From an uncultured Planctomycetaceae bacterium (GTDB taxonomy: Bacteria > Planctomycetota > Planctomycetia > Isosphaerales > Isosphaeraceae): a stretch of 64,000 nucleotides of DNA. The notes beneath the pieces are model-generated. The model did not search any database. It was not told where the DNA came from and saw only the letters and a program-made list of their open reading frames with translations. Shown here piece by piece: positions 5,909 through 25,213 of the stretch; position 1 is the stretch's first letter, and every line of letters begins with the position of its first letter. Location of the stretch: positions 2,112,001 to 2,176,000 of the forward strand of contig CAWIAD010000002.1 in NCBI GenBank assembly GCA_963833985.1. The letters are read 5' to 3'. The position numbers and the translations under genes were made by a program.

Positions 5909-5963
5909 TGCATTAGAATTCCGGTAGAACATCCACGCAACGAGTGACCAGCGACGGAGGACC

Positions 5964-6176
5964 ATGGACACGGTAACGCTAGACGGACTCACCGTAACGC
6001 TCACCCAGGATGCGTATGTCTCCGACGACAGCGAGACCTACGAGGCACACGCCGCGGATGATGAAGGGAATGTCTATAAGGTATTTTGGCGGGTGATTTG
6101 CACCGACACAGACGACCAATCAAATTGCTGCGATTGGGATAAGCCCTTTCACATCACCCTGGTCGAGACTGCCTAG
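5964..6176 (+). CDS. Small acidic hypothetical protein
   Basis: GGAGG RBS, 70-aa ORF, first gene of a co-oriented run. Confidence 0.7.
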   Translation: MDTVTLDGLTVTLTQDAYVSDDSETYEAHAADDEGNVYKVFWRVICTDTDDQSNCCDWDKPFHITLVETA

Positions 6177-6223
6177 GGCCAGTAACGAGAGCCTACGGAA
6201 CACCCCGCCGGCCACGGAGGAGC

Positions 6224-6459
6224 ATGTACCACGAGAGACGCTTCAAGACGGAGATTCACGAGGACCTCTTAGCCAATTGGGACGATAACGGTCACGGGGC
6301 AGACGTCATCTTCGACCCGAGACGGGACCAATCGGGCAGATTGAGGATTGGGACGACGGGCACGGGCTGCTCGCAAATGGTGAGGATATGGCCGAGGTAA
6401 TTGACGGGGCCAAGAAGGCTATTCAACAGGTTCTTAAGGGCTCGCTTCCTTGTTGCTAA
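6224..6459 (+). pseudogene. Small acidic hypothetical protein with apparent frameshift near 6320
   Basis: GGAGGAG RBS + ATG (MYHERRFKTEIHEDLL...); protein-like continuation ETGPIGQIEDWDDGHGLL...CC* in another frame. Confidence 0.45.
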
Positions 6460-6478
6460 TCAACCACTAGGGAGGACC

Positions 6479-6913
6479 ATGGCCGACGACTCACTTGACC
6501 GCTTAGCAGCAGGCCGAGAACTCATGCGGGAGCGTTGCTATGAGTGTGCCTTGGCGAATACGCCGGACACGGTGCGGGCGATTAAGATTCGTCGGAGTCT
6601 GTCAGGAAGAGCCCACGTCAGAAGCGGAAGCGGGTTGATGGAAGCACCGGTGCCCAAGACCAGGAAGGCCCTCTACATCTTCCTTCACGAGTGTGCTCAC
6701 TTTGCCCTGGACCTTCGAGGACAAAAGCCGATTCACGTCCAGGAGCACGAGGCCGAGGAGTGGGCTCACCAGAGGATGCGTCAAGCCGGGATTCCAGTGC
6801 CGCGGTCGATGACTACGAGGGCCAAGGATTATGTTTCTCGCAAGATTGGTCGAGCCGAGAGGCGAGGAGCAAAGAACATCGACAGGAAGGCACGCAGATT
6901 CGCTGGGAGGTAG
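6479..6913 (+). CDS. HExxH metallopeptidase-like protein (ImmA/IrrE-like)
   Basis: GGGAGG RBS; IFLHECAHF and downstream QEHEAEEWA. Confidence 0.7.
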   Translation: MADDSLDRLAAGRELMRERCYECALANTPDTVRAIKIRRSLSGRAHVRSGSGLMEAPVPKTRKALYIFLHECAHFALDLRGQKPIHVQEHEAEEWAHQRMRQAGIPVPRSMTTRAKDYVSRKIGRAERRGAKNIDRKARRFAGR

Positions 6914-6930
6914 TCGTAGTCAATCCAAGG

Positions 6931-7263
6931 ATGACCATGACCGCCAACGTGATTTCGCTGAAGGATAAGCTGGCCGAAGAAGAGCAGGCCCTTCGAGCAC
7001 GAATGACCGCGTTTGCTCTGACGTTCCCCTCGATGCGGTACGCTTTGGGAGTCGAGCCCAGGGATGCCGTGGAACTAGACGCTTGGGGCAACGGCCCTCG
7101 CTCGCATGGTGAGCGAGTCACCGCTCAGTTTCTCTTGAATGTGTGGGACCCTTCGACCGAGTGGAAGTGTGGCCGCTTTGACGTGATGGAAGCGTTGCGA
7201 CTCTGGAGCCCCTCGCACCGAGAGCCGTTTCTTCGGTGGGCTTCTGACCCGTGGTGGCCGTGA
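6931..7263 (+). CDS. Hypothetical protein
   Basis: Co-oriented ORF; Trp-rich C-terminus (QFLLNVWD...FDVMEAL...DPWWP). Confidence 0.7.
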   Translation: MTMTANVISLKDKLAEEEQALRARMTAFALTFPSMRYALGVEPRDAVELDAWGNGPRSHGERVTAQFLLNVWDPSTEWKCGRFDVMEALRLWSPSHREPFLRWASDPWWP

Positions 7264-7273
7264 CGAAGGAGCT

Positions 7274-8290
7274 TTGCCCGTGTCCACTGACTTAGTCGTT
7301 ATAGAGCAAGGTGGCCCACCAGGTCGAAGGCCAGACGAGCTTCCCGCCCTGGTCATCCGGGCCGGGAGACCCGCCCGGGCGTGGACTGACTTCTTTGACG
7401 GCCGCTTGCGGAACGACCACACACGCAGAGCTTACGCCCGCTCGGTGCGCCACTTCCTCGCATGGTGCGAGCGGGAGCAGCTCGACCTTCCCCGCATCAT
7501 GGCCGGCGACGTCGGCCGCTACCTCTCGCAACTCTCGGGCGGGCCCGAAAAGAAGAAGGCGACGCTTGCCGCACTCAGGCGATACTTCCGCATCTTAGTC
7601 GAGCGGCACATCTGTCTTATCAATCCGGCTTCTGAGGCAGAGACGGACCGATACGAAATCGTCGAAGGCAAGACGCCCGAAATCACCGATACTCAGTTTC
7701 GAGCGTTACTCGCTGTCATCGATTCGACGACGATGACCGGCCTGAGAGACCAGCTCATCATAAAGACGCTTGCCTACACGGGGGCCAGAGTCGGAGCAGT
7801 GGCAGGCCTTGAGCGGGAGCACTATTATGAGGCCCGGGACCAGTGGATGCTTCACTTTGACGAGAAGCGAGGCAAGTCTCGGGAGATTCCCGTTGCCCAC
7901 GACTTGAAGACTCTCTTCGACGAGTACCTTGAACGAACCGGCATCAAGCACGAGCGGCGGAGACGAGACCCCGAGACAAACGAATTTGAGCCCATCTATC
8001 TCTTCAGGACCGCGTTGAGACGAAGCGGCCGGCTGACGAAAAACCCTATCTCCGGAAACGACATCTACCGCATGATGCAGAGGCATGCCGAGACGGCAGG
8101 CCTGGGAGCTAAGTTCTCACCGCACAGTTTCCGCGTGGCGATTGAGACGGACCTCCACGAGCAGGGCATTCCGACCGATGAGATTCAGACACTTCTCGGG
8201 CATTCGGATGTCCGGACGACAAACCTTTACAAGCGGAACCGCCGTGGCGTCACGCGAAACCTCGTCGAGCGGATTAGACTCGGCCGGTGA
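7274..8290 (+). CDS. Tyrosine recombinase (resolvase/integrase)
   Basis: YTGARV, EKRGK, SPHSFR, LLGHSDVRTTNLY catalytic motifs. Confidence 0.93.
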   Translation: MPVSTDLVVIEQGGPPGRRPDELPALVIRAGRPARAWTDFFDGRLRNDHTRRAYARSVRHFLAWCEREQLDLPRIMAGDVGRYLSQLSGGPEKKKATLAALRRYFRILVERHICLINPASEAETDRYEIVEGKTPEITDTQFRALLAVIDSTTMTGLRDQLIIKTLAYTGARVGAVAGLEREHYYEARDQWMLHFDEKRGKSREIPVAHDLKTLFDEYLERTGIKHERRRRDPETNEFEPIYLFRTALRRSGRLTKNPISGNDIYRMMQRHAETAGLGAKFSPHSFRVAIETDLHEQGIPTDEIQTLLGHSDVRTTNLYKRNRRGVTRNLVERIRLGR

Positions 8291-8355
8291 GAACACACGG
8301 CACCTAGGCAGTCTCCTGTCAGGTACACGTCAACAGCATGGGACGTTGAAAGGGT

Positions 8356-10110
8356 TCATTGAGTGCCGATTTCCTGAGGGTCACTGTCAGGAGGCACGGT
8401 CCAAAAGCCCCTGTTAAAGAGCTTTGCGAGATATTGCCGATGGGCCGGTACGAGCTTCCTAAGAGCTTCTACATCGTTTACGCCCAAGAGACCAAGAAGC
8501 CGCTCCGCGTATTTCTTGCTCTTGGCACGCAGAAGAAATTTTGGGCCATTCGCCGGCATATATAGAACGCTCCAAGGTCGCCAATACTCGAACATATCGT
8601 CTTGTGCGATAGCGAACGCTCGCATGGACAGAAAATAGTCTGCCTCAGTGAATTGTTCGCGGGGTGTCACCTTGGCCAAGTCGCCCTCGGTGTGTCGTTT
8701 CGTGAGTATCTCGGAGTGAAGACTTATCCTCCTCAGGTTTAGCCGCCGATTGCGACGCTCAAGCAGGTCAAGGTGTTCGGAAATGTCATTGAACCCAGCA
8801 ATACCCGGCTGATAATTGATGCAATTATTGGCATAAATGCCATCGCTCAGTAACTCGCCGACCGTTTCCCAGCGGTCTTCACGAATAAGCGACGCTATAA
8901 ATATGACGAATAACTCATGTCCGAGGAATTTATAGAAATCAAAGGAATATGTGTAGTAACTTCCTCCGCCTTTGGACGGGTTGGAATAGTATTCACTGAT
9001 TATATTCCCGAATGATTCATAAAGGGCGGTGGACGCTTCCTTGGCGTTCGTTACGGCAATGGTGGACGCGACACTGGCGAATTCAACACATAGAGGTATG
9101 GACTTCTCCAACGACTCGACTAACAGCTCGTCATGCTCACCAGGACCTGAGAACTCCGGAGCAATCTTCTTAAGCTCTTCGAGCAGCTCGGCCATGAAGG
9201 ACCGAACGCCCGACGACGCATCGGGGCGGCGGTCGCGAATGGCTTCTGTCACGGCGATTACCGACGCAGGCAGACCGGATGTCGGTGCCAAGGCCGCGAG
9301 TTTATGGTATACCGCGAGCAACTCCTTAAGGACGGCGGAGGCCCCTGAGCACGGTACGTGCGTAAAGGTGCCCGCCTCAGCATGGAAGAGGGATGGAATG
9401 GTGTCCGGTGGTTCGCTCGGATTGACCCAGAACGTCGGATAGTGCCTCTGCTTTGTTTTCCTAAAAACCCGGAGAATGCTCTCATCCGACCCTGAGTAAC
9501 CGAGCACCATGAGCCCATGGTCACTGAGGACCCGTGAAAGCTCTCTCTCCATTCGTCCCGTTAGTTTCTGGAGGTCAGCCGGGGTGTTCCGCAGCCGGCC
9601 AACGCCCATAGTTCCGTGAGGCTTGTAAACGCGGAATTGCTTGCAGTGGATGAGCGGCTCCGAGTGCTCAAGGTCGTCGTCGTTCGATATGACTTGGACG
9701 CTCAATCCGACCTTGGCAAGAGCTTGCTCAATGAGGTCGTCAAAGTTTGTCGTGATGATACAACGGAGTACCTTTAACCGTGCTAGTTCCGCGATAAGGA
9801 CGTGAGCTTTGCCAGGTTCTTTGGCCCGGAGCTTTTCGCGTATGAACTGTTGTTGTTCTACAGATGTACTGAAGAGTCCTCCTATTAGTTCGGAGTACTT
9901 CATGTCTTTGTAACGACTTCCAAGAAACCACGTCTGCAAGTCGGTGCCGTCGTCTACTTCATTGGTACGGAGGACAGCAGCAGTTTGAAGCATTAGATCC
10001 CAGGCCGTTGGGAGCCCCGCGTCCTTCGATAATCCAGCACCGGCAAGACACACATACTTGGCTTCGCCGGGTGTCGCACTTGTTGCCAGTTTCACGAGCG
10101 GAGGCAGCAT
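8356..10110 (-). CDS. SIR2-family NADase with bSEFIR-like C-terminal domain
   Basis: GAGLS, TTNFDDLIE, KPHG, LGYSGSD; C-terminal FDFYKFLGHELF...RNRRLNLRRISLH...EADYFL...WRPWS. Confidence 0.88.
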   Translation of the reverse strand: MLPPLVKLATSATPGEAKYVCLAGAGLSKDAGLPTAWDLMLQTAAVLRTNEVDDGTDLQTWFLGSRYKDMKYSELIGGLFSTSVEQQQFIREKLRAKEPGKAHVLIAELARLKVLRCIITTNFDDLIEQALAKVGLSVQVISNDDDLEHSEPLIHCKQFRVYKPHGTMGVGRLRNTPADLQKLTGRMERELSRVLSDHGLMVLGYSGSDESILRVFRKTKQRHYPTFWVNPSEPPDTIPSLFHAEAGTFTHVPCSGASAVLKELLAVYHKLAALAPTSGLPASVIAVTEAIRDRRPDASSGVRSFMAELLEELKKIAPEFSGPGEHDELLVESLEKSIPLCVEFASVASTIAVTNAKEASTALYESFGNIISEYYSNPSKGGGSYYTYSFDFYKFLGHELFVIFIASLIREDRWETVGELLSDGIYANNCINYQPGIAGFNDISEHLDLLERRNRRLNLRRISLHSEILTKRHTEGDLAKVTPREQFTEADYFLSMRAFAIAQDDMFEYWRPWSVLYMPANGPKFLLRAKSKKYAERLLGLLGVNDVEALRKLVPAHRQYLAKLFNRGFWTVPPDSDPQEIGTQ

Positions 10111-10152
10111 GACTTAATCCCATAGTTCGCGGTAAGGCGACGTCCGTCGGCT

Positions 10153-10470
10153 GTGGTAGCAGTATACGAAAGTTCTCTACCCCCGTCGTCAACCTGGTGG
10201 TTCCGCTCGGCACCTAGAAAATCAGTCACGCTCACATCGCATGCATTGAGGCAGAACAATGCCCTCGATATGGTGAAGAGAAGGGCCAGGGCCGCGGGCC
10301 TCTCCGAGCGGATTTGCTGCCATACGTGCCGGGCAACGGGAATCACGGCCTACCTAGGGAACGGCGGGACCATCGAGAAGGTCCAGCAAATCGCGGCTCA
10401 CGAAAGCCCGAAGGCGACGAAGCTCCATGACCTCAGGAACGTCCAAACTACGCTCGATTGCATCGAGTGA
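10153..10470 (+). pseudogene. Tyrosine recombinase C-terminal remnant
   Basis: ICCHTCRATGITAYL...AAHESPKATKLHD (catalytic Tyr replaced by His); no N-terminal domain. Confidence 0.8.
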
Positions 10471-10515
10471 ATTATGGTTTAATGCCTAACCCGCCGGAAC
10501 GGAGTCGCCAACGCC

Positions 10516-11901
10516 ATGCTGACACCGGAGCAGAGCAATCGGGCCGTTGAAGTGATGCGGGAGTATCTCGCAGCCCCACCGAATCCAGACGGACGAACGC
10601 CCCTTCAAATCCAGACTGAACTGGACAAGGACCGAGTCAAGCTCATCGAGACCGAGCTCAAACCGCTCGTCCAGAGCTACCTCAGTGGGCAGACGCCTCT
10701 GGCCGAGTTCAAGTCGAGAATCGACGGGATTAACAAGCGGAACGAGTTCTGGGGGTTCAAGGGCATCAAGGGCCAGATGTTCTTCAACATGGTCGTCAAC
10801 GTCTCCGACGATGAGGCCGAGTGTGACCAGGAGCTCAAGGCCGCCGTCGCCCTGCCCGCGGTCGAGGACATCGCCAGCAGCCGCATCAAGACGTTCCACA
10901 GCTACGTGCGGCGAATCGGCAACGAGTTCGTCGAGAGGGGAGGGTCGAAGCAGGGGCGACCCAACCCCGGGAGCATCCCGTTCTTCCTGTCCTATTTCTG
11001 GCAGATTCAGGACCGGTCGACCTGGCCCGTGTATTACACGAACAGCGTCAACACGATGATTGACCTCAACCTCTGGCAGCCAAGCGACGAGCTCGCCGTG
11101 GATTACGTCGCCTACAAGCACATCCAAGAAGAGCTCACCGCCTTCTTCACGAAAGCATCAGGCCGACCCTTCGACCTCTACGGGGTCGAGCACGTCTTCT
11201 GGTTCAAGGGCGGGAATCCCTATGGCGATGCGAAGCCACTCCGCGACGCGGAAAGGCTGACCACGCCCCAGCCCAAACCACCGGCCGTCATAGACGCCAC
11301 GTCCGTCTCCCGACTCCCCGAGAGCTATGTCCCGCCGGTTATCGCCATCTTGCCGAGCATGGCCCGTAACGAGCCCGGCTTGGAGGACGCAGCCAAGGCG
11401 TCGGGAACCAGCTTGCCGAGAGCCTTCGAGAAGAGCATCCATGCCGCCTTCACCGTCCTCGGCTATGACACGAAGCTACTCGGTCAAGGGAGTGGCCGGG
11501 TACCAGATGGGTTGGCGTTAGAGCTCGATAACTCGTACGCCATTCTCTGGGACGCCAAGACCCGTGAGGACGGCTACAGCATGGGGACCGATGACCGGGC
11601 CATCCGAGAGTACGTGATGACCCAGAGCCGGGAACTCAAGCGACGACGGGCCTTGCGGAACATCTACTACGCCATCATCTCAAGCGGATTCAAGGATGAC
11701 TACGACGACCTTATCCGTTCCATCAAGATGGAGACGGACACGAACGAGGTCTGCCTCATCGAGGCGTCTGCCCTGGTGGCAATGGTCGACGCGAAGCTCC
11801 GCAACCCTCTGCAAGTCTCTTTGGGGCCGGACGGCTTGCAGCGACTGTTCAGCAATAGCGGAATCCTTACCCCCGAGGACGTTCTTAAGAACTTCGGTTA
11901 G
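10516..11901 (+). CDS. Putative restriction endonuclease with FokI-like cleavage domain
   Basis: AFEK...LGY...GRVPDG...WDAK...GY resembles the FokI PD...DxK motif. Confidence 0.72.
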   Translation: MLTPEQSNRAVEVMREYLAAPPNPDGRTPLQIQTELDKDRVKLIETELKPLVQSYLSGQTPLAEFKSRIDGINKRNEFWGFKGIKGQMFFNMVVNVSDDEAECDQELKAAVALPAVEDIASSRIKTFHSYVRRIGNEFVERGGSKQGRPNPGSIPFFLSYFWQIQDRSTWPVYYTNSVNTMIDLNLWQPSDELAVDYVAYKHIQEELTAFFTKASGRPFDLYGVEHVFWFKGGNPYGDAKPLRDAERLTTPQPKPPAVIDATSVSRLPESYVPPVIAILPSMARNEPGLEDAAKASGTSLPRAFEKSIHAAFTVLGYDTKLLGQGSGRVPDGLALELDNSYAILWDAKTREDGYSMGTDDRAIREYVMTQSRELKRRRALRNIYYAIISSGFKDDYDDLIRSIKMETDTNEVCLIEASALVAMVDAKLRNPLQVSLGPDGLQRLFSNSGILTPEDVLKNFG

Positions 11902-11976
11902 CTCCCGCTGACCGATTACGGGTATGACGACGCCCCCATCACACGAACCGACCAGCTCCTCATTGGCTGAGACCAG

Positions 11977-12510
11977 ATGGATTCAACGAATATCGGCATT
12001 GCCGGCGAGTTCTACGTCCTAGCCCAACTCGCACAACGCGGTTTTGTGGCGTCCTTTACCCTGGCGAACACAAAGGGAATTGACATCATCGTCATCAACC
12101 CGCCCCTTGACCACTTCATCAAGCTCGAGGTGAAGACAACGAACAAACCGTCAAGGAAGGAGCGGCCATTTTCCCTGGACCCAGTGTATGGTTGGCCGAT
12201 GTCGGAGAAGCACGAGACGATTTCTGAATCCCGGATGTTCTATTGCTTCGTCGTTCTCCAAGGCCCTTCGACCCTCCCGCTCTTCTTTGTTGTCCCCTCA
12301 AGGTACGTCGCCGAGTACGTGCGTGAGCAACACCGCTATTGGGTTCGCACCCGGACAGAGCCACCAGACCCGTCGAACAAGGTGAGGCGGTTCCGCATCC
12401 ATCCGAGTGACCCGCTCGGGTTCAAGGATAATTGGCAACTGCTCGCCGGGGTATCACCCAGTCCCCAGCAATCCCACGTTATGGAACCTTGGGTCTCGCA
12501 CGAGCCCTGA
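11977..12510 (+). CDS. Small PD-(D/E)XK endonuclease
   Basis: GIAGEFYV...GIDII...LEVKT. Confidence 0.8.
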   Translation: MDSTNIGIAGEFYVLAQLAQRGFVASFTLANTKGIDIIVINPPLDHFIKLEVKTTNKPSRKERPFSLDPVYGWPMSEKHETISESRMFYCFVVLQGPSTLPLFFVVPSRYVAEYVREQHRYWVRTRTEPPDPSNKVRRFRIHPSDPLGFKDNWQLLAGVSPSPQQSHVMEPWVSHEP

Positions 12511-12521
12511 ATCGGTTCGGT

Positions 12522-12585
12522 AGCTTCGGGGACAGAAGGTGCCGGTTCAATGGCCCTGCCTGTTTGCCGGAGATAATTCCCTTTA
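12522..12585. repeat. 64-bp imperfect direct repeat, copy 1
   Basis: 54/64 ungapped identity with 13547-13610. Confidence 0.9.
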
Positions 12586-12589
12586 CCTG

Positions 12590-13375
12590 TCAGAGCGTCA
12601 CCAAGGTAGAAACAAGGACTGAAATATGGCCGAGCCCGTGCCGCTGAAGTAGAGATTCCACTCGCTCCCGAAAGGCCTCGGAGCTTCCAGGCTTCAAACG
12701 AATTCCCGTGATGAGAGTGCTCAAACGGATAGGCACAAGACAGAACACATCGCCCGCTTGAAACGCCACGTCGCTAGTTCGTGAACCAGGTCGGATGACC
12801 ACCCTGTATTCCTGCTCCGGTGCGAAGTTCGCACGCTTCCGGAACACGTGACGCATGTCGCTCACTGGTTGACCCATCTCGGTGTAGAGGTCGACCGTCT
12901 CGTCACTGAAGTAGGTCACGCCGCCCACCGTGAAACCATCATATGGGGCAATCTCACCCTCACTGGTTTTTACCAGTACAGGACCACCTGTGTAGCTCGG
13001 ATGTGACAACTCGCCCTTGAGCCTCTCGACTGTTGTCATAATCATGAGCCCATCCTCGTCACGCCTCCCAGTATAGTTGGCCCACATGTGGGGTTCCTCG
13101 GATTCACCAATCACAAAACATGTTACAAACGTAGAAAATCTATTTTCCTCATACCACGCTTTTACCTGACCACCTTGGGTCGCGTCCCCTTCTGCAAGGG
13201 ATGTCTTGCCTTCAAGTTTGTCTTCGAACTCGTTGAGCCGCCTGAGATAGAGGCTGGCGTTCTGAATCAGCGACTCGAAATGCGGTGTGTAGGGCATGTA
13301 CTTGCACAGGACCGTAGCCTCATCCAAGTTCTGGACGTTCTCATCGTTGAAGAGCTGCCGCGGAGTGAATGTCAT
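12590..13375 (-). CDS. DUF2971-like protein
   Basis: KYM, FEDKLEG, VTCF...MWANY, FRKR..F..EQEYRV. Confidence 0.75.
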   Translation of the reverse strand: MTFTPRQLFNDENVQNLDEATVLCKYMPYTPHFESLIQNASLYLRRLNEFEDKLEGKTSLAEGDATQGGQVKAWYEENRFSTFVTCFVIGESEEPHMWANYTGRRDEDGLMIMTTVERLKGELSHPSYTGGPVLVKTSEGEIAPYDGFTVGGVTYFSDETVDLYTEMGQPVSDMRHVFRKRANFAPEQEYRVVIRPGSRTSDVAFQAGDVFCLVPIRLSTLITGIRLKPGSSEAFRERVESLLQRHGLGHISVLVSTLVTL

Positions 13376-13463
13376 CGCTCATCCCTCGCTCTATCCGTTT
13401 CCAACACGCCTGAACGTCCCCATTTTACCGAGCGGCCATGGCAATAGCCCATCGCTTTGACTT

Positions 13464-13491
13464 TGGGGACATAATGGACCTTATGACCCCG
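13464..13491. other. dif-like 28-bp recombination site
   Basis: TGGGGACATAA-tggacc-TTATGACCCCG (11-6-11, CATAA/TTATG core). Confidence 0.6.
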
Positions 13492-13546
13492 AAGCCTGCC
13501 TTCCTCGACCGACCGACCGGACCAGGAGCTGCCAGAACACACCCAC

Positions 13547-13610
13547 AGCTTCGGGGACAGAAGGTACCGGTCCAACCTCCATGCCCGTGAGCCGGAGACA
13601 ATTCCCTTTA
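13547..13610. repeat. 64-bp imperfect direct repeat, copy 2
   Basis: 54/64 identity with 12522-12585. Confidence 0.9.
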
Positions 13611-13630
13611 GAAGAACGGGAGGGCGAGAC

Positions 13631-14662
13631 CTATTCAACCGTAGCGAGGCCTAATGCGGACGCAGCTTCGCGAATAACACGGCAGACCAGCTCAGTCGCT
13701 TCTTGAATCTCCTCCCGAGACATAGGGACTTCTGACCCCCGTCTCTCCCACGTGCGTACCTGTTCACGATACTTGTCGTCCACGAGGCCGAGGTTGTGGG
13801 TCAGAACGTGTCGCTTAGCGAAGACCCGCTCGAGCAGCCCACGCTCGTCGGCGGTGAGAGATGAGAATATCGCGACGCCGAGGTCTCGTGCCAAGAACTC
13901 TTGAGCCCCAGCAAGCCTCTGAAAGTTGACCTTTACCTTATCGAGCTTCTTCTCGGCCTCTTCGGGGCTGAACCGCTTCCGCACGGCGTAGCGATAGAGC
14001 ATCTTGAGGAACCCCTCGAAGAGGCTAACAACGTCCTCATAGGCGTTTCCGTACATCCTTTCCTCTGCCTGACGCCCGTGAGTTTGGCCGATACGCTCGG
14101 CTTCATCGGCCAGGACGCGAATCGTGCTGACGCTCTGTGAGAGGTGCTGGGCAATGGCTCCCTGGCCGCACCAGGGACAGTGGAAAGACAACCCATAGAC
14201 CGCGTACCGATGCTGGCAGCCGCTGCACGTGACGGTCTGCTTGAGCCTTTCCTCGACGTAATGCCGAACGGAAGGCAGCGACCCTCGCTCAACCTTGATT
14301 GAGATGAGCCCTTGGCGATGTGGCCGGAAGGCTCTCTTAAGCGTGTCGTAGACGGCCCGGGCTGCGTCCCGGAATACCATCGACATAATCCAATCAAGTT
14401 GAGCTTTCGTGTTGAAGTCCTGCATGTGACCGCCGGTGCCGCAGTACGGACAGACCAACTCCAATTGGCTTAGCTCACCCGCAGGTTCGCCTTGCTCCGG
14501 GAGTTCTAGGCTGATTTTGAAGTATCTGGGGTCGCAGTTTTCGTTCGGGCATTCCCGGCCTATCAACCCGTCTTCATCAGGCTTGAGCGGCACCTGGAAA
14601 TGCTCGATGCCATCCTCATCCCGCCCGGTCCGGAATCGCCGCATGTCATGGAAGATGTCCAT
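13631..14662 (-). CDS. Zn-finger + HEPN-like protein
   Basis: CPNENC, CPYC, CSGC, CPWC; C-terminal FQRL...RHVLTHNLG (RxxxxH). Confidence 0.75.
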   Translation of the reverse strand: MDIFHDMRRFRTGRDEDGIEHFQVPLKPDEDGLIGRECPNENCDPRYFKISLELPEQGEPAGELSQLELVCPYCGTGGHMQDFNTKAQLDWIMSMVFRDAARAVYDTLKRAFRPHRQGLISIKVERGSLPSVRHYVEERLKQTVTCSGCQHRYAVYGLSFHCPWCGQGAIAQHLSQSVSTIRVLADEAERIGQTHGRQAEERMYGNAYEDVVSLFEGFLKMLYRYAVRKRFSPEEAEKKLDKVKVNFQRLAGAQEFLARDLGVAIFSSLTADERGLLERVFAKRHVLTHNLGLVDDKYREQVRTWERRGSEVPMSREEIQEATELVCRVIREAASALGLATVE

Positions 14663-14780
14663 CGCTCGACCGCCCCACAACCTCAAAGGAAGTCCAAGCC
14701 CTGCCATCCATGATACCCAGGACCCTCCATTTGGTGAACTGAACCTCAGAATACAGGCGACCACCGGCGGACCAACCTTT

Positions 14781-14808
14781 CTAGGTCATAACGTCCTTTA
14801 TGATCTGG
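14781..14808. other. dif-like 28-bp recombination site
   Basis: CTAGGTCATAA-cgtcct-TTATGATCTGG (11-6-11). Confidence 0.6.
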
Positions 14809-15179
14809 AAACAGCCACTCCGCATCGCCTCTTTAATCCTCGAAGCCGTGAATGCATCTCGGCCACCCAAGCTACACTTTTGAACCCCGCTCTGGCCAAG
14901 AACTTCAGGGCGGCTTCCTGAGGGGCTCAAAATCCAAAGGGACTCATGACCTCACGAGGAATCGTCCTTGCGGTCGGTGACAAGTGCGTCAAGCGGGGTG
15001 GTCATGTCATCCAGGAACTGGTGTTAACCCGGCGACTCTGTCTCGTCTGCGTTTCGCGTAGTCTTGTCCGTCTGCAAGAGGGCACCATTGTGCTCGGTCC
15101 CGGCCCGTCGATCAGGCTCCAGACGTGATCGATGCTGCGAGAGCATGCCCAGGAAAGTGCCTCAGAAATCTGTCAGTCC

Positions 15180-15214
15180 ACTGACCCGGCGTTGGCAGTG
15201 GTCCTCGCTAGGAT
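15180..15214 (+). promoter_or_regulatory. Putative WYL-regulator operator and -10 element
   Basis: ACTGAC-N8-GGCAGT-N9-TAGGAT. Confidence 0.55.
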
Positions 15215-15311
15215 GCAGCCTCAGCCAATCTGACTTTGGTGATGGGACCCCCGATTGGAGACGATTCCGATCAGCCTCTACCCATCGCTGCGGATGGGGT
15301 GTGGGGCGAGC

Positions 15312-15743
15312 ATGGCGAAGAAACGGACGGACGCTGAAAGGAGAGTTCGCCAAACCGATCGGCTGGCTCGGGTCCTCCGGGTCCTTCAACTGATTCAGAG
15401 TTCGGGTCAGTGGACGGCAGAGAGCATCGCCAAGGAACTTGAGTGCTCCGAACGAACCGTCTATCGAGATCTCCAGACCCTTTCAGCAGCCGGTGTGCCT
15501 TGGTACTTCGACGACTTCAGTCAAAGCTATCGCATCAGGGAAGGATACAAAGGTCCTTTCCCGCATCTCCAAGCTCGAAGGAATAAGGCCCAGGGTTCTG
15601 CGTCGGGAGATGATGCCCGGTCCATCGCTTCTCTCGCTAAGGAAGCAGCCCAAAGACTCCTCACCGAAGCCGAGAGCGTTGTTCAAGCCTTGGATCGTCT
15701 GTCCAAGGCGATCGAGGATATGGCCGGACCGATGTCTCGTTGA
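15312..15743 (+). CDS. Winged-HTH protein (WYL-regulator N-terminal domain only)
   Basis: IAKELECSERTVYRDL; paralogous to the N-terminus of 17221-18243; helical tail, no WYL domain. Confidence 0.85.
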   Translation: MAKKRTDAERRVRQTDRLARVLRVLQLIQSSGQWTAESIAKELECSERTVYRDLQTLSAAGVPWYFDDFSQSYRIREGYKGPFPHLQARRNKAQGSASGDDARSIASLAKEAAQRLLTEAESVVQALDRLSKAIEDMAGPMSR

Positions 15744-15785
15744 GCGAAAACGACAATCTGATCTCCCACCCGCCGTCAATTCTTG

Positions 15786-15820
15786 ACTGACCCACCGATG
15801 TCAGTCTAGCCGCGTAGGCT
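15786..15820 (+). promoter_or_regulatory. Putative WYL-regulator operator and -10 element
   Basis: Perfect ACTGAC-N8-GTCAGT followed by N9-TAGGCT. Confidence 0.6.
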
Positions 15821-15858
15821 GCTATTCACGATCTCTGAAACCTCCGTGAGTAGCACCA

Positions 15859-16737
15859 ATGAACCCCTCTGCTTTCATCAAGCAACGACAGATCTTCTGG
15901 GCCCTCCGACACGGCATTGAACTCGGCGGACAATTCCGCCACGATCCTGACCCTGGCGAAGCCAACCGAGGTGAGGCGAGCTTTGTCTACGAGTTGGAGG
16001 AGAACCTGTTTGAGCCTCTGCTTCCCGAGGTACGCCGGGAATACGAGGCAGGTGACGGCGGTGAGATTCGGCCAAATCGAACTGACGGTCGTATGTACGC
16101 AGTCAACTCATCGTCGGCCCTTGTGGTGAACGTCTTCCACTACTGGCGACGTCTCGGACAGGTTGCCGACATCGCCCGGGCCTGCCAGCTTCCCTCAACG
16201 CCGATCAGTCGAATGGAGTTTGAGGCTCATTGCCCTATAGACGATCAGTTCGAGCGTGCTCCCAACCTGGACGTGGTAATCCATTATGCTCGGAAGCAGG
16301 GTCTCCAAGCTTCCGCGATTGAGAGTAAGTTCCAGGAACCATACTCAGGCCGAAGGCACAATGGGCTCTCACCAAACTACCTCGAACTGGCGAGAGTGTG
16401 GACGGACATTCCAGCTCTTCGTGAACTGGCCGAGCAAGTCTCACCGAATAACGAGCGCTTTGCCCATCTGGACGTCCCCCAACTCATCAAGCACATCCTG
16501 GGCCTCAAAGAGGCGTACTCCAAGAGCGGATTCAGGCTGCTCTATCTCTGGTATGCGTCACCCGGGCCGGAAGCCCTCAAACACGCTCAGGAGTTGGAGG
16601 AGTTCGGAGCCTTCACGAAACGCGACGAGATCGCCTTCCAGGAACTGACCTATCAGGACGTCATCCTCAGCCTGGCTCGGAACCAGCGAGCAGGTCACAC
16701 CGCCTACATCGACTATCTCATGGATCGGTACTTTTGA
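15859..16737 (+). CDS. Putative restriction endonuclease (PGN_0703-like, PD-(D/E)XK)
   Basis: SSSALVVNVF, FE, PNLDV, IESKFQEPY, QLIKH. Confidence 0.78.
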   Translation: MNPSAFIKQRQIFWALRHGIELGGQFRHDPDPGEANRGEASFVYELEENLFEPLLPEVRREYEAGDGGEIRPNRTDGRMYAVNSSSALVVNVFHYWRRLGQVADIARACQLPSTPISRMEFEAHCPIDDQFERAPNLDVVIHYARKQGLQASAIESKFQEPYSGRRHNGLSPNYLELARVWTDIPALRELAEQVSPNNERFAHLDVPQLIKHILGLKEAYSKSGFRLLYLWYASPGPEALKHAQELEEFGAFTKRDEIAFQELTYQDVILSLARNQRAGHTAYIDYLMDRYF

Positions 16738-17220
16738 ACCAGCATCGTCTGGGGCATTCGACGAACTCGTCAACGCCTATTACAGGAGCCGATCGCTGGT
16801 TCCCCGACTTACGCGAAGCAATCATATCTGGGATATTATCACATGTCAGGACCTCGGCGTCTGGGATGGTATCTCGCATCTCGACTTCAGGCCGCTCCTC
16901 CTCAAGCAACTTGCGGAAGCCTGGAGTAAGGACGCAAGTGGCCTCATGCGTCGCCCAGGCAATAACAACAAGCAACTTCCTCGCGGCCGGATCACCCCCG
17001 AGGGCAGGCTTCCTGAGCGTACACAGCAACGACGCACGGTTGGAATGCTGGAGGCCCATGGTCAAAGCCCGCTTCCGACTCTGTAGGGTGAACGTCATCG
17101 CGATATTTGACGGGCACTAACGCATGCTCGGCGAAAACCATCAGGCCCTTCAGGATCCCCCCGGAGGTTTTCTGGGCCGCGACCGAACCGTCTGACCCCC
17201 GTCTCCCAGGTGGTAGGATC

Positions 17221-18243
17221 ATGCCCGGCGATGAACGCTTCCGAAGGTCTGATGCCGACCGAAGACTCCGGCAGGCTGCCCGATTCGCACGGGTCCTCCG
17301 CGTCCTGGAGTTGATCCAAGGGCGGTGTCGCTACGACATCAACGACCTGGCCCGGGAACTGGAGTGCTCATCACGGACCGTATTCCGTGACTTGAACGTT
17401 CTTGAGCTTGCCGGGGTCCCCTGGTTCCACGACGAATCGGACCGATGCTACCGAGTTAGACCCGACTACCGGTTCCCCGCCCTCAACTTGACAGACGACG
17501 AACTCATCGGCCAGGCCACGGCAACCGCGATATCGAGCTCTCCCAACTTGAACGTCAGTCTCGGGGCTGCTCCAACCACTCGGAAGATTTCCACCACGTC
17601 ACGTGACCAGGCAAGCCGTCTTCTCGAGGATGTCCAGAGGCTCACATCGGTGCTCGACTTGAAGCTGGCTGATCACAGTCGGCACCACGAGGTCATCCAC
17701 ACGGTTCAACGAGGCCTGGTCGAAGGCAAGCAGCTGGCCGCGATCTACATAAGCCCGTATGAGTCCGGATCGAAGAGGTTGGTACTTCATCCGTACCGAT
17801 TATGTTTGATCAAGCAAGCCTGGTACGTCATCGCCAGAGTAACAGTCGCGGAGCAACCTCAGACTCTCCGAATCTCCAGGTTCGAATCGCTCAGGTCATT
17901 GGAGAGCCCGGCTACAGTCCCCGCCGACTTTGACCTGAGGGCCTATTTCGGCAACGCTTGGGGCGTCTATCGGGGTGACCGCACGTACGATGTCGAGATT
18001 CGCTTCTCTCCCGAGGCGGCCGACCTTGTGACCGAGACGACCTGGCACCCTACGCAGAAAGTCCAACGCCGTCGAGATGGGGGCGTTACGCTCGTCTTCC
18101 GTGTCGATGGACTGAATGAGATCGTCCACTGGGTGCTTGGTTGGTCGGGTCGTGCTACTGTCGTCCGCCCGGACGATCTCCGCCTGTTGGTCGTGGAAGA
18201 ACTCCGGAAGGCCCTCTCACTGAACCAAGCGATTCCAGAATAG
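17221..18243 (+). CDS. HTH-WYL-WCX transcriptional regulator
   Basis: N-terminal wHTH; HPYRL...AWYVIAR...RISR; WVLGWSGRATVVRP. Confidence 0.93.
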   Translation: MPGDERFRRSDADRRLRQAARFARVLRVLELIQGRCRYDINDLARELECSSRTVFRDLNVLELAGVPWFHDESDRCYRVRPDYRFPALNLTDDELIGQATATAISSSPNLNVSLGAAPTTRKISTTSRDQASRLLEDVQRLTSVLDLKLADHSRHHEVIHTVQRGLVEGKQLAAIYISPYESGSKRLVLHPYRLCLIKQAWYVIARVTVAEQPQTLRISRFESLRSLESPATVPADFDLRAYFGNAWGVYRGDRTYDVEIRFSPEAADLVTETTWHPTQKVQRRRDGGVTLVFRVDGLNEIVHWVLGWSGRATVVRPDDLRLLVVEELRKALSLNQAIPE

Positions 18244-18341: not shown

Positions 18342-18361
18342 GTTGACCCACCTGCGTCAGT
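18342..18361 (+). promoter_or_regulatory. Putative WYL-regulator operator
   Basis: GTTGAC-N8-GTCAGT. Confidence 0.45.
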
Positions 18362-18642: not shown

Positions 18643-18858
18643 ATGTTCCGACCCCAAGCTTCGCCGCCATCGTTGGCTATCCCCAACACCGGTCGCTGTG
18701 CCGCCTGTAATGGGACCGGCCACCATCAGTCTTGCAGTCGACCGCCCCGCGACCTGGGCCTCTGCACCCACTGTCACGGGACTGGCCGTTGCGGTCTCTG
18801 CCGAGGGAGTGGTTTGACTCCCTCCGGTCATCGCTGTCACTGTTGTGGCTCATCGTGA
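18643..18858 (+). CDS. Small DnaJ-type zinc-finger protein
   Basis: CAACNGTG, CTHCHGTG, CGLCRGSG (CxxCxGxG repeats). Confidence 0.7.
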   Translation: MFRPQASPPSLAIPNTGRCAACNGTGHHQSCSRPPRDLGLCTHCHGTGRCGLCRGSGLTPSGHRCHCCGSS

Positions 18859-18934
18859 CCTGACGACTTCTCTATGACCTTCAATTGGCTGTCCACGCAC
18901 TCCGTGCTTCTCTGCCTTAATGTTAGGAGTTCCT

Positions 18935-20368
18935 ATGCCCCTCACCCAGGCAGAAATGGATTTCTTTGCCCGTCACTCCTACGAACTGCACAATTTCGAC
19001 AAGCCAACTCCCGCTCATGAGTTCTTAAGGCATCTCTGTCCGACGGGGCGGCCCGAGTCGCGGATATTGTTAATCTTCCAGTATCTCTGGCAGGAGCAGT
19101 CCCGGGATGATGGGACCGCCGAGTCCTTTTTCTCCTGGGCACCGCCCATTGATCTCCCTCCGTTGGCCCCTCCATGGTCAACCTGGCAAGAGTTCGTAGA
19201 TCGGGCCGAGAGTCTCTACGCGGAGAGCGTTTACCGACAGTTCGAGGCCAACGCACACCCCCTCCGCTACCCGCATTTCACCACAACTCGGAAGGGTCGT
19301 TACCTGGACAAGATTCCGGAGTTCACCCTTGCTGAGAACGTGTTCCTAGATGCTTACTACCGGGAAATCTCTTCCCAGAAGAAAGGGCCCTGCTTAACCA
19401 CAGTAGACTCTTTGAATATTCCGGTGGACGAAATCAACACTCTGGTCGCTTATCGGGCTATGGAGTTGATGCACACCGGTCAGCCCTGGCCTCAGCTGGA
19501 TGCCGTGGGCCCTCCCAATCCCTGGTCGAGTCTGGACGAATTCAAGCGGCGTTTCTTCCCCCCACGACCAAATTTCCCCCGCTGTCACTACGTTACCTTG
19601 AATCGGACGGAGCTCTCTGCCAAGGAACAGTCTTTCTTCCATCATTACTACTGCGAAGTTATTTCCCTCACTCCAGGTCCAGCCCACGAATACATACGGG
19701 ACCAGGACATCCCCGGCATACTTCTTGTCCCTTTCCAGTACGCAATCTTCCGAGGCGTCGGGCATGGTTTGGTTGGTTTGTTCATGGATGACCCTCTGCC
19801 TCCCTTCGAGGTCCCCTGGTCTTCAAAGTCTATCTTCTACCAGCGGGCCTACTTTTTCTGTCCTACGGAGATGGAGAAGGAAGCCTTCTCTCGCCACATC
19901 CCGGCCAGAGATCGAGAGTACATCACGAGCTCTTTCTTTGAGCTTTGCTACCCCAACCAGTTCGAGGAAGAATTCATCGAGTGGTACCTCGCCGAAACTG
20001 CGGGCAAGACCGCCGGGTTCACTCCCGCTAGCAATTGGCTTTGGACCCATGGGGTTTACCCGACGAATCTGAAGGTCATGATCCATTCGGCCCAGAATCC
20101 CCCCGGTCGCTGGCACGCCGTCGAGTACGACAACCCTCTCCCACTCTTTAAACCCGCCTGGGTGGACAAAGACGAGTTCAACGAGCGGCTCAAGAAATTC
20201 CTCCGTGCTTACCCTGAATTCACCGAAGATCCAACGGCGATCCCGGATTATGCTCCGGAGGGCTACGAGGAGAAGAGGATGGCCTGGTTGAAGTCGATCC
20301 CGACTCCCCCAGCCGTGGGTTCTTTCCCGACTCCGAATGAGCCAGAAAATGATCACCACTCCAACTGA
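18935..20368 (+). CDS. Hypothetical protein with four internal repeats
   Basis: AGGAG RBS; four copies of E..F...(Y)..E......P....(I)......P....PW....(E)F..R. Confidence 0.85.
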   Translation: MPLTQAEMDFFARHSYELHNFDKPTPAHEFLRHLCPTGRPESRILLIFQYLWQEQSRDDGTAESFFSWAPPIDLPPLAPPWSTWQEFVDRAESLYAESVYRQFEANAHPLRYPHFTTTRKGRYLDKIPEFTLAENVFLDAYYREISSQKKGPCLTTVDSLNIPVDEINTLVAYRAMELMHTGQPWPQLDAVGPPNPWSSLDEFKRRFFPPRPNFPRCHYVTLNRTELSAKEQSFFHHYYCEVISLTPGPAHEYIRDQDIPGILLVPFQYAIFRGVGHGLVGLFMDDPLPPFEVPWSSKSIFYQRAYFFCPTEMEKEAFSRHIPARDREYITSSFFELCYPNQFEEEFIEWYLAETAGKTAGFTPASNWLWTHGVYPTNLKVMIHSAQNPPGRWHAVEYDNPLPLFKPAWVDKDEFNERLKKFLRAYPEFTEDPTAIPDYAPEGYEEKRMAWLKSIPTPPAVGSFPTPNEPENDHHSN

Positions 20369-20804
20369 CGCACTGGCTGGCCCCCTGACCGGTGCGTATT
20401 ACTGGGTGCCCTTTCCACCTGTTAGTTCACTGACCTGGCGGATTCTGACTTACCACGAGTTGGGATTCGGCGAGGACATCAGCCATTACGAAATCTGGCC
20501 GAAGGTGGTTACTCAACTCGCAGGAATCTGGAGACGTGATCCGAAGGTGTTAAGAAGGCACTTGGGAAAGCACTGCTACGGACTTCCGCGTGGTCGAGTT
20601 ACTCATCCGGAAAAGACATACCTGATCCTTCATGGAAACGATTCGCCGATTCCTGACTGGAAGGCGAGAGTTATTCGCCGGTTCAATATGCAAGGACTAC
20701 TAGTCAAGCCTCTCTTCGATGAGCATGAACAACGGATGGGAGAAGATGCAAGAAAGACTGGGGAGGCTCTTGGAATAGTTGCGAGCACTGGGAACTTGAT
20801 TTGA
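20349..20804 (+). CDS. Hypothetical protein
   Basis: Start overlaps the upstream gene; GAYYW, HYEIW, YGLPRGRV, DEHE. Confidence 0.75.
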   Translation: MITTPTDALAGPLTGAYYWVPFPPVSSLTWRILTYHELGFGEDISHYEIWPKVVTQLAGIWRRDPKVLRRHLGKHCYGLPRGRVTHPEKTYLILHGNDSPIPDWKARVIRRFNMQGLLVKPLFDEHEQRMGEDARKTGEALGIVASTGNLI

Positions 20805-22726: not shown

Positions 22727-24463
22727 ATGAGCGTCTTTCGTCCGCGTGTCACCCGTTCCGGCAAGACGACCAAGGCTGCAACCTGGTCGTTCCGATGCCG
22801 ACGCATCGATGGGAAGCTATATCAGGAGAACGGCTTCAGGACCAGAGGGGAAGCCTATGGCCGACGGGAGGAAGTCCAGCGATTGATCCGTCTTGGGCTC
22901 GATCCCAGTGGACAATCATCGAGAACCCCGCTGATCCATCTCCTCGAAGACTTCCGCAAGGCCTTGGAGGCCAAGGGTATCACACCAGCCCAGATCAAGT
23001 TGGTCACCGGTCGCATTCGCCGCATCCTCAGCGATTGCCTGTTCTATGAAGGAGCCCAGCTGGATGAGCAACGGCTCATGCACTTCCTGGCTTCGCTCAA
23101 GACAAAGCGTGCAAGCGATCAGACAATCAAGCATTATCTTCGCTCAATCAAGCAATTCACGCGTTTCTTACACCGTCAGCGTCACTTGTCGCAGGACCCA
23201 TTCCTTCACATCGAGGCCCCGAAGGTACTCCGAAAAAAGCATCAACGCCGTCCGCTGACCAATGATGAGACCCGACGCTTGTTGGAGACAACGTTGACTC
23301 AGCCGATATTCCGCGGTCTGACCGGACAGGAGAGGGCCGCACTCTATTTCACGGCGTTGAAGTCCGGTTTGAGGGCCTCGGAGTTGGCCAGCCTTCGCGT
23401 CGAGGACTTCTCTCTCTATGGACCCAACCCCCACGTCACCCTGGCTGCAATCAACTCGAAGCACCGTCGGACCGACGTGATACCGCTTGATGGTGAGGCC
23501 GTCCGCTTCCTCGAACCCTTCTTATCTCAATGGGCCCCCAGCGTTCGACCCTGGCCCGGGAACTGGGCGAAGTATAAGGAAGCCGGTGTTATGCTCCGCC
23601 GCGATCTGGAAGCCGCCGGCATACCCTACGAGGTCGGCGACAAATTCGCCGACTTTCACGCCCTGCGACACACGTTCATTACGAACCTGGTCCGGGCTGG
23701 TGTTCCTCCCAAGATTGTCCAGATCCTGGCCCGACATTCCTCCATCGAGCTGACTATGAACACCTACACCTTATTGGGTCTGACCGAAGTCTTCGAGGCG
23801 ATAAATCGACTCTCACCAATTCTTGGATCGGTTGATGTTGCACCAGATGTTGCACCCGCAACCGTCACGCAGGAGCAGGAAACGTCTCAGATTGGCACTC
23901 CGGAGGGTCCGGTGCCTGGAAAGGCAGGTCATGAGAAGACGACCTTCCTGCAAGCGGAAAGCCTTTCCCAGTCAGGACATGACACGAGCTGTCAGGAAAT
24001 GTCTTCAGATGTCAGCGGAGGAGGTGGGATTCAAACCCACGGTACCCCGAAGGGGTACACCGGTTTTCGAGACCGGCCCTTTCAACCACTCAGGCACCCC
24101 TCCGGGTCGCCAGTTTCCTGTTGCTTCAGTTTAGAAGAGACGCGCCGATCCTGGAAGAAGAGACTGAGGATTTCGGCTCGCACGAGCCTGCCTGGGCAGA
24201 CTTATCGATCCTCACGTTGCGGATCGGAGTTCGATGGATTGGCGAGCATCGCAATGATATGGCGCACCAGAGGCTCAGCAATCTCTCGATGGCGAGGCAC
24301 GGGCTGGGAGACTCCGGTCGCCGGGTTTCGATACCAGTCGTGCCGCCCGCCATGCCTGACGAGAACGCATCCGCAGCTTGCGATCGTGCGGACCAGATCC
24401 AACCGCTTCACGGCACAACCAGTTCGTCGACCTTGCGAATCCCTGGAAGCGCTCCGCTCGTGA
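22727..24463 (+). CDS. Tyrosine integrase of the element (ORF reads through att/tRNA; catalytic core ends near 23820)
   Basis: GAGGAG RBS; SGLRASEL, SKHRR, DFHALRHTF, LARHS...NTY. Confidence 0.93.
   Translation: MSVFRPRVTRSGKTTKAATWSFRCRRIDGKLYQENGFRTRGEAYGRREEVQRLIRLGLDPSGQSSRTPLIHLLEDFRKALEAKGITPAQIKLVTGRIRRILSDCLFYEGAQLDEQRLMHFLASLKTKRASDQTIKHYLRSIKQFTRFLHRQRHLSQDPFLHIEAPKVLRKKHQRRPLTNDETRRLLETTLTQPIFRGLTGQERAALYFTALKSGLRASELASLRVEDFSLYGPNPHVTLAAINSKHRRTDVIPLDGEAVRFLEPFLSQWAPSVRPWPGNWAKYKEAGVMLRRDLEAAGIPYEVGDKFADFHALRHTFITNLVRAGVPPKIVQILARHSSIELTMNTYTLLGLTEVFEAINRLSPILGSVDVAPDVAPATVTQEQETSQIGTPEGPVPGKAGHEKTTFLQAESLSQSGHDTSCQEMSSDVSGGGGIQTHGTPKGYTGFRDRPFQPLRHPSGSPVSCCFSLEETRRSWKKRLRISARTSLPGQTYRSSRCGSEFDGLASIAMIWRTRGSAISRWRGTGWETPVAGFRYQSCRPPCLTRTHPQLAIVRTRSNRFTAQPVRRPCESLEALRS
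23834..23856. repeat. Tandem GATGTTGCACC, putative integrase arm-type sites
   Basis: Two identical 11-mers 1 bp apart, about 160 bp from the tRNA 3' end. Confidence 0.55.
24016..24103 (-). tRNA. tRNA-Ser(CGA)
   Basis: GGAGGGG/CTCCTCC acceptor stem; CCGGT-CTCGAAA-ACCGG anticodon arm; long variable arm; T-loop TTTGAAT. Confidence 0.95.
24074..24175. repeat. 102-bp direct repeat copy 1 (tadA 3' end + tRNA 5' end)
   Basis: Identical to 24665-24766. Confidence 0.95.
24202..24411 (-). CDS. hicA: HicA mRNA interferase toxin
   Basis: GCVLVRHGGRHDWYRNP...VPRHREI. Confidence 0.92.
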   Translation of the reverse strand: MKRLDLVRTIASCGCVLVRHGGRHDWYRNPATGVSQPVPRHREIAEPLVRHIIAMLANPSNSDPQREDR

Positions 24464-24599
24464 GGTCGACGTAGAGCTCGGCAAGGAGGTCTTTCAGATC
24501 GTCCAAAGAATCGCCCTGGGTCCAGTAATCGGGATAATCCACAAGGTAACCCAGAAAAACGTCACCGTCCTGCCAGTGAATGAACTTGACGGTGTGCAT
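24408..24599 (-). CDS. hicB: HicB antitoxin
   Basis: GYLVDYPDYWTQGDSLDDLK; 4-bp overlap with hicA. Confidence 0.9.
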   Translation of the reverse strand: MHTVKFIHWQDGDVFLGYLVDYPDYWTQGDSLDDLKDLLAELYVDLTSGALPGIRKVDELVVP

Positions 24600-24664: not shown

Positions 24665-24766
24665 CGGCCCTTTCAACCACTCAGGCACCCCTCCGGGTCG
24701 CCAGTTTCCTGTTGCTTCAGTTTAGAAGAGACGCGCCGATCCTGGAAGAAGAGACTGAGGATTTCG
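24665..24766. repeat. 102-bp direct repeat copy 2
   Basis: Identical to 24074-24175. Confidence 0.95.
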
Positions 24767-25213
24767 CCGCACTCGCGCTCCATCACGCCGGCCGTCACGA
24801 GGGCGCGGTGGTTCAGACGGGGGTCGGAGACCAGGCGGTACAGGGTGTCGCAGGCGCCTGCCTTGGGGTCCTTCGCTCCGTAGACGACCCGGGCTATGCG
24901 GCTTTGCACGATGGCCCCGGCGCACATCGGACACGGCTCGAGCGTGACGTAGAGCGTGCAGTTCTCCAGTCGCCACGTCCGCAGCACGCCGCCGGCCATG
25001 GTGATGGCCAGCCGCTCGGCGTGCGCCGTGGGGTCGTGCAACGTTTCACGCAGGTTGAACGCCTGAGAGAGGATCTTGCCGTCGCGGACGATGAGAGACC
25101 CGACCGGTACCTCGCCAAGCAGCGCGGCCTGCCGCGCCAGCTCGAAGCGCATGCGCCATCATTTCGAGGTCGAAATCACTGGGTTCAAAGCCGGATGAGG
25201 AGGGACCTGTCAT
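24673..25213 (-). CDS. tadA: tRNA adenosine(34) deaminase (apparent frameshift near 25146)
   Basis: GEVPVG, PTAHAE, TLEPCPMCAGA; N-terminus MTGPSSSGFEPSDFDLEMMAHAL lies in another frame. Confidence 0.93.

Follow-up and report, generated by a model that had tools for sequence, protein, structure and literature searches.

Protein B of the locus described here is, judged from its sequence, four diverged and fused copies of a ~105-aa helical domain, which we call REP. The best reading of B, though a tentative one, is that it serves as an orphan four-valent antidote to zinc-ribbon proteins of a second family, Z, and that it is carried on a WYL-regulated island. The stretch of DNA analyzed (64,000 nt, G000:C2:2112001-2176000; hereafter the window) comes from a 10.2-Mb genome with 65% GC, and the named relatives of its proteins belong to the Isosphaeraceae, presumably the family of the host as well. 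Three forward-strand genes are concerned: ORF A (18643..18858), encoding a 71-aa CxxCxGxG mini-protein; B (18935..20368), with a strong ribosome-binding site and a 477-aa all-helical product made of four tandem REP units; and C (20349..20804), encoding a 151-aa alpha/beta protein of the PRGRV family that is predicted to be a His-dependent enzyme. All three lie where the initial annotation had placed them, and B and C overlap by 20 nt. B and C are genuine genes and A probably is one too, and the divergence of B and C from their relatives is biased toward third codon positions, as in real genes. They are not, however, a conserved three-gene unit.

The initial annotation had described A, B, and C as one operon, and this was not supported. 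A adjoins C at one of 30 C loci, namely the window itself, and is missing wherever else B or C was seen; among 120 kin genomes it has only weak partial matches in eight (E 7e-4 to 9e-3), none of them credible. Gene order also varies, being WYL-D-C-B in L031 and L033 and WYL-A-B-C in the window. Nonetheless, A is probably a real gene: it carries three CxxCxGxG motifs, its ribosome-binding site is plausible, and three or more such motifs occur in only 4 of the 126,877 six-frame segments of the genome. Against PHROGs, A gave weak matches to families of unknown function only (best E 0.0013). Membership of A in the Z family was considered and rejected (hhalign probability 0.5%). A would be a recent passenger.

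The four repeats claimed for B are real. A profile built from 23 single-unit relatives matched B four times at 27-64 bits, against at most 7.3 bits for the best domain among 200 shuffled B sequences; since those relatives had themselves been detected with the alignment of B, the test covers the four-fold repeat and not, independently, the family link. The units lie on the forward strand at 18941..19264 (aa 3-110 of B, 28.9 bits), 19322..19552 (aa 130-206, 27.3 bits), 19604..19849 (aa 224-305, 60.8 bits), and 19958..20266 (aa 342-444, 63.8 bits). No repeat was visible when B was compared with itself by BLAST. The units are 17-28% identical to one another and 26-38% identical to the nearest stand-alone REP, which suggests that the fusion either joined units that had already diverged or is old. 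Structure prediction gave an all-helical model (pLDDT 74, pTM 0.57); a fold search with the whole 477-aa model returned nothing at E 0.001 (best Z-score 3.3), the ESM Atlas held no usable match, and no B homolog was found in IMG/VR. A homolog search yielded 24 matches among 2804 candidates, of which one is a near-identical fragment and the others are 43-81% identical. The copy of B in a related genome, G011, is frameshifted and interrupted.

A search of 121 genomes of the order with the alignment of B recovered mostly single-unit proteins of 95-130 aa, in 20 genomes, so that REP is seen as a stand-alone gene in Isosphaeraceae, and the REP profile extended this to 36 genomes with 1-10 matches each. 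REP was not found in 400 other genomes of the phylum sample, a set without members of this bacterial family. Across 28 units only E11, G28, and W74 are nearly invariant, a conservation pattern that appears binder-like. Two-unit forms occur in L034 and L100, and REP is fused to other domains in L053 and L097. At L053:5800-6894, a REP unit stands in frame with a C-terminal RxxxxH-motif domain, which we take to be HEPN-like; other copies of that REP stop earlier. Stand-alone REP matched nothing in Pfam or NCBIfam, and the domain falls outside the named immunity families (SUKH, SuFu, Imm).

The usual gene directly upstream of a stand-alone REP gene is Z, which encodes a ~110-aa protein with four conserved cysteines (a CxxC zinc ribbon), in which conserved polar residues are few. 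Of the 121 genomes, 20 contain Z, with up to seven matches per genome; in the window's own genome, G000, neither a genome search nor a six-frame scan with a widened profile detected it. The open frames that contain these matches are short (none above 332 aa, the majority below 250 aa), and no long carrier was seen. With three split matches per list merged by hand (Z rows from 52 to 49, REP rows from 114 to 111), a REP match lies within 600 nt downstream on the same strand at 48 of the 49 Z loci in the 121 genomes, a count inflated by a Z profile that was seeded with 13 genes chosen for standing upstream of REP. The single Z locus without REP is 100 nt from a contig end. Conversely, Z accompanies 48 of the 95 REP clusters and is missing from 47; two or more REP matches are present in 11 clusters, some as tandem arrays. 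The sequences of 36 of the 47 Z-less clusters were fetched, and 14 of these have a more distant Z-like gene upstream, which suggests that the Z-REP pair has diversified into subfamilies (10 of the 14 genes had served as seeds of the widened profile, and these 10 reached only 2-16 bits on the original Z profile). The undescribed two-gene cassette, seen for example at L043:5764-6465 and at 48 other loci, falls into at least four subfamilies. At L044 (in G042), Z and REP share one open frame.

Z was seen with REP at all loci but the one at a contig end, and REP often occurs without Z; this suggests a toxin role for Z, an antidote role for REP, and for B that of an orphan antidote of four valencies. 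A first gene that is never without its downstream neighbor, while the neighbor may be alone, arrayed, or fused, is the toxin-antidote pattern described in PMC3482391 and PMC7354431. Three further observations point the same way. Pairwise distances in Z and REP are correlated (r = 0.87, 38 pairs with one locus counted twice, 0 of 2000 permutations), although linkage alone makes genes diverge together even if their products do not bind, and related genomes are not independent samples. At least 4 of 29 distinct loci have a split or truncated Z, and the REP gene that follows is whole at all 28 with sequence; many of the genomes are metagenome assemblies, however, so that split Z genes may be assembly errors, and broken REP genes also exist (L176, L181, L186, and the B copy in G011). 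Finally, REP genes stand behind the WYL regulator in the window and in L031, L033, L034, L097, L100, and L108. The binder-like units, the all-helical model, and the lack of Z in G000 also agree with B being an antidote. Other facts weigh against this reading. Z resembles no known toxin family. The distance of B's units from the closest stand-alone REP, as given above, is large, and B has been kept as a four-unit whole in its relatives, which would also fit a fixed function of its own.

If B is such an antidote, Z would be toxic inside the cell and REP would neutralize it by binding. No trafficking domain or signal peptide was visible by eye in Z, which suggests that it would be an intracellular toxin and not a secreted one. 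Each unit of B might cover a different Z subfamily, so that B would shield its host from Z-REP cassettes that are gained or lost, in the manner of an anti-addiction module. The WYL regulator may turn on this cargo after DNA damage or infection. C would likely belong to this conflict module as a distinct His-dependent hydrolase, transcribed together with B but not its obligate toxin.

This scheme has precedents. Polyimmunity loci and proteins combine tandem arrays and multi-domain fusions of immunity domains, with recombinases nearby (PMC3482391). In B, too, a single polypeptide comprises several divergent copies of a small domain, REP exists both as single genes behind a partner and as orphan arrays, no cognate toxin lies beside B, a recombinase is nearby, and the gene content varies between kin. 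Unlike in polyimmunity systems, Z is a stand-alone protein of ~110 aa instead of the terminal toxin domain of a polymorphic toxin that is trafficked, REP is in no Pfam immunity family, and its neutralizing role is conjectural. Orphan antitoxins, for their part, act as anti-addiction modules according to PMC7354431. Z and REP resemble a type II toxin-antitoxin pair in being two small, co-oriented, coupled genes present in several copies per genome, of which one, REP, persists alone, while Z is accompanied by REP at nearly every locus. The pair departs from that type in that the putative toxin gene comes first, neither gene is in a known toxin-antitoxin family, REP lacks a recognized DNA-binding domain, and four units are fused in B. 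By this comparison B likely works like a polyimmunity protein or an orphan antitoxin, without being a member of a named family. The family was not mentioned in the open-licence papers listed, taken without supplements, on Isosphaeraceae toxin-antitoxin systems or islands; REP could appear by a different name in the supplement of PMC3482391. The initial annotation had suggested a candidate defence or toxin-antidote system; an antidote role for B is retained as the best reading, and the three-gene unit is not.

The relation of B to C was examined at 32 loci, 30 of which contain C, within a range of 3.5 kb. Around these 30 C genes, the WYL gene was found at 17 loci, a phosphoesterase gene at 10, a REase-ARP gene at 8, REP at 8, a gene D at 6, and Z at none. 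D is a conserved 70-aa gene of no known family (L033:636-848, L034:12249-12458, L097:6765-6980), which lies directly upstream of C or REP at 6 of the 30 loci. A WYL gene, C, and a four-unit B recur together in L031 and L033, in the order WYL-D-C-B-phosphoesterase, and in G011 the arrangement WYL-REP-D-REP-C-REP-REP occupies the same tRNA site. The recurrence of B-type genes with C behind WYL in related islands partly upholds the neighborhood claimed by the initial annotation; all three genes together were found at none of the other loci read. In a tree of 36 C sequences, the window C groups with the REP-flanked C of G011 and four further proteins (support 100/98); the longest contig of each of these four has the same nucleotide length as that of a B homolog (18332, 10976, 83163, and 22087 nt). 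A second clade, of four C proteins (support 97/95), is REP-adjacent. B and C are thus partly coupled.

Alternatively, B and C could constitute a self-contained two-gene system, with C as a toxic or defensive enzyme and B as its inhibitor or sensor, released on phage infection; this comes near the toxin-antidote idea of the initial annotation, minus A. The 20-nt overlap of the two genes and the REP-linked clades, six-membered in the case of the window C, agree with this account; C could stand in for Z, which is missing within 3.5 kb at all 30 C loci, and the island carries many defence-like genes (SIR2/PDC-S65, PDC-S31, PDC-M14A). We nevertheless consider it rather unlikely. REP is lacking within 3.5 kb at 22 of the 30 C loci, which indicates that C is not an obligately neutralized toxin and does not need an antidote everywhere. 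Furthermore, C lies sometimes upstream and sometimes downstream of REP, the phage copies of C have no REP among the open reading frames read by eye, the shared contig sizes are an indirect link, and C and Z have no sequence feature in common.

Z and REP may instead be a regulatory or structural pair, that is, a zinc-ribbon sensor or nucleic-acid binder with its partner, for which B would be a multivalent adaptor or a decoy that titrates such proteins. The four cysteines of Z, its few conserved polar residues, and its failure to match any toxin would suit this explanation, and strict adjacency with co-divergence suits any obligate heterodimer. It would not predict that REP stands alone in about half of its clusters, nor that it forms arrays, and selfish or conflict modules typically show the kind of patchy, multi-copy spread that REP has (1-10 per genome, in 36 of 121); this explanation is therefore unlikely. 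That A, B, and C are merely unrelated passengers of the island's variable slot, with B and C independent and adjacent only through a shared element, is very unlikely: the slot between WYL and the integrase does differ in nearly every element, C copies are often broken (window 16766, L034, L090, L105, L108, L206, and L207), and A has no relative, but two supported C clades are associated with REP, both B and C show selection-like codon divergence, and the idea is in any case compatible with an antidote role of B.

A homolog search for C gave 67 matches among 86 candidates, and the PRGRV family numbers 579 representatives (clusters) at E 0.001 in the full library. The H, PRGR, and DEHE residues to which the initial annotation drew attention are indeed conserved: H46, PRGR, and D124/H126/E127 are kept in 86-100% of 88 members, with H46 invariant and R81, R83, H95, D98, D124, H126, and E127 at 86-99%. 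This set looks like an active site, and C is likely a His-dependent enzyme. Within the order, 18 of 121 genomes contain C, as do 4 of the 401 in the phylum sample. Selenocysteine in C matches was considered and rejected, the flagged TGA codons being ordinary terminal stops. A broken second copy of the family, with a frameshift and a stop, lies at 16766..17138 (+), at a backbone position between the REase-ARP and WYL genes, and G011 has a broken C copy at the same place.

Neither B nor C belongs to a recognizable family, as had been stated initially: Pfam, NCBIfam, PADLOC, and PHROGs name neither of them, and the same four collections assigned no family to A, Z, or REP. In particular, PADLOC profiles detected no system component in A, B, or C at E 0.05. 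The model of C is confident (pLDDT 89), and the fold search gave nothing at E 0.001 (best Z-score 3.7). The best match in a viral fold library is an uncharacterized siphovirus protein (E 0.003), the first match in the ESM Atlas (0.81) is annotated 'hypothetical', and C profiles found nothing below E 0.2 among the sequences of solved structures. The top Foldseek PDB match of the C model is the phosphohistidine phosphatase PHPT1 (Janus/Ocnus, PF05005; 2nmm_A, E 0.083, probability 0.75), with which VIA-align aligns 90 of 113 residues. PHPT1 uses His53 and Arg78, according to PMC4817053, and in C an invariant His precedes a helix and there are invariant Arg residues. On the other hand, the VIA-align Z-score is only 3.3 at an rmsd of 4.2, tied with gelsolin domains, and no sequence profile links C to PF05005. 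The modelled relation to PHPT1 is therefore a lead only; the open-licence literature on PHPT1 in bacteria or phages held nothing on the topic.

Homologs of C also occur on IMG/VR contigs of 269, 116, and 100 kb; no match was found in plasmids, nor any to the phage-type C in cultured phages. On these phage-like contigs (L214, L215, and L216, respectively) the C homologs lie beside SF2 helicases, and by eye the helicase of L214 carries an intein-like insertion. Phage members have N-terminal extensions of 20-50 residues, and an [LIVM]xE[SAG] motif is found there in 45 of the 88 aligned members, a figure without a control count. The motif resembles LIE, the cleavage site for gp21 in T4, whose internal head proteins carry capsid-targeting propeptides (PMC9026906). 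No sequence likeness of C to those proteins was shown, and the window C has no extension. A more ambitious picture would combine these threads: an undescribed and rapidly diversifying Isosphaeraceae family of Z toxins and REP antidotes, countered by the four-fold fusion of a widespread WYL-controlled element, and a PRGRV enzyme, remotely related to the PHPT1 fold, that is packaged and injected by large phages and used by island and phage alike in a conflict over phosphorylated signals. As a whole we regard this as quite improbable.

Regulation of B may depend on the HTH-WYL-WCX regulator encoded at 17221..18243 (+). The operator consensus is YTGACCC-N6-GTCAG, of which the 10.2-Mb genome holds four exact copies, two within the island. 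One exact copy (15787..15804, +) precedes REase-ARP and is followed after 10 nt by a TAnnnT box, and a copy with one mismatch (15181..15198, +) likewise lies 10 nt before a TAnnnT box, upstream of a gene (15312..15743, +) for a short HTH protein that is a paralog of the regulator's N-terminus (38% identical). The box 10 nt before TAnnnT is also seen in L034, L096, L097, L100, L101, L102, and L104. Sites with two mismatches in the window are not above chance (16 versus 13.05 expected). As the initial annotation had reported, an operator copy stands behind the WYL gene, exact at 18343..18360 (+) and ~300 bases upstream of the ORFs. The hexamer 10 nt downstream of this copy is GAGGGT and not TAnnnT, which makes WYL-driven transcription of B uncertain and tells against the antidote reading to that extent. 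Equivalent copies behind WYL in L031, L034, L097, L102, and L105 are also followed by GAnnnT. The conserved operator position and the recurrence of B-type and C genes behind WYL fit the proposal that the cargo is under WYL control, which the weak -10 element makes less certain.

The regulons of DriD, PafBC, and DdaA are governed by WYL activators (PMC12392091). The HTH-WYL-WCX regulator of the island resembles them in having a repeated box at a fixed distance from the -10 element. With these regulons and with BrxR and CapW, the island shares an imperfect palindrome repeated in front of several units, 10 nt 5' of the -10, and the link of such a regulator with defence-like cargo. The island differs in its box sequence, in its second, truncated HTH paralog, and in the non-canonical -10 before A-B-C. 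By analogy, the layout fits a DriD/DdaA-type WYL activator with a weak, activator-dependent cargo promoter.

Three protein families without a name, REP, Z, and PRGRV, are thereby defined. If Z-REP is a toxin-antidote pair, it would add a new family to a lineage that has received little attention for its conflict systems, and B would represent a polyimmunity strategy at work inside the cell, a single gene serving as insurance against several cassettes. PRGRV proteins occur both in a planctomycete integrative element and in large phages not yet cultured, and the family's active-site-like residue set without a recognized fold makes it a good target for enzyme discovery.

The island itself is ~73 kb long with 54-58% GC. 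Its integration site is a tRNA-Ser(CGA) gene (24015..24103, -), the 3' 63 nt of which recur at G000:C2:2062946-2063008 and bound the island; the open reading frame of the tyrosine integrase (22727..24463, +) runs through the tRNA-Ser attachment region. The backbone of related elements consists of a deiminase, DUF932, a PD-(D/E)XK nuclease, the short HTH protein, the nuclease-fold REase-ARP (PF22558; 15859..16737, +, in the window), a C-family gene, WYL, a variable slot, a calcineurin-like phosphoesterase, and the integrase; A, B, and C occupy the variable slot. Open-licence literature on REase-ARP, or on the combination of REase, ARP, WYL, calcineurin-like, and DUF932 genes, was not found. The segment from deiminase to WYL (window 1243-17120) is shared with L096, L097, L100, L101, L102, and L104, from several genera of the family.

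Other island cargo resembles defence candidates, including the SIR2/PDC-S65, PDC-S31, and PDC-M14A types. A 64-nt direct repeat (84% identity; 12522-12585 and 13547-13610) flanks the PDC-S31-like gene at 12590-13375 and may be a cassette recombination site. Between tadA and tRNA-Ser lies a 114-nt direct repeat (96%; 24074-24187 and 24665-24778), which encloses a gene pair at 24202-24599, presumably HicA/HicB-like; the arrangement appears to reflect a small insertion, by which the tadA end and the beginning of the tRNA gene were duplicated. A second, near-identical tRNA-Ser region (97% over 92 nt) lies at G000:C2:2061825-2061916, 1 kb past the far boundary of the island.
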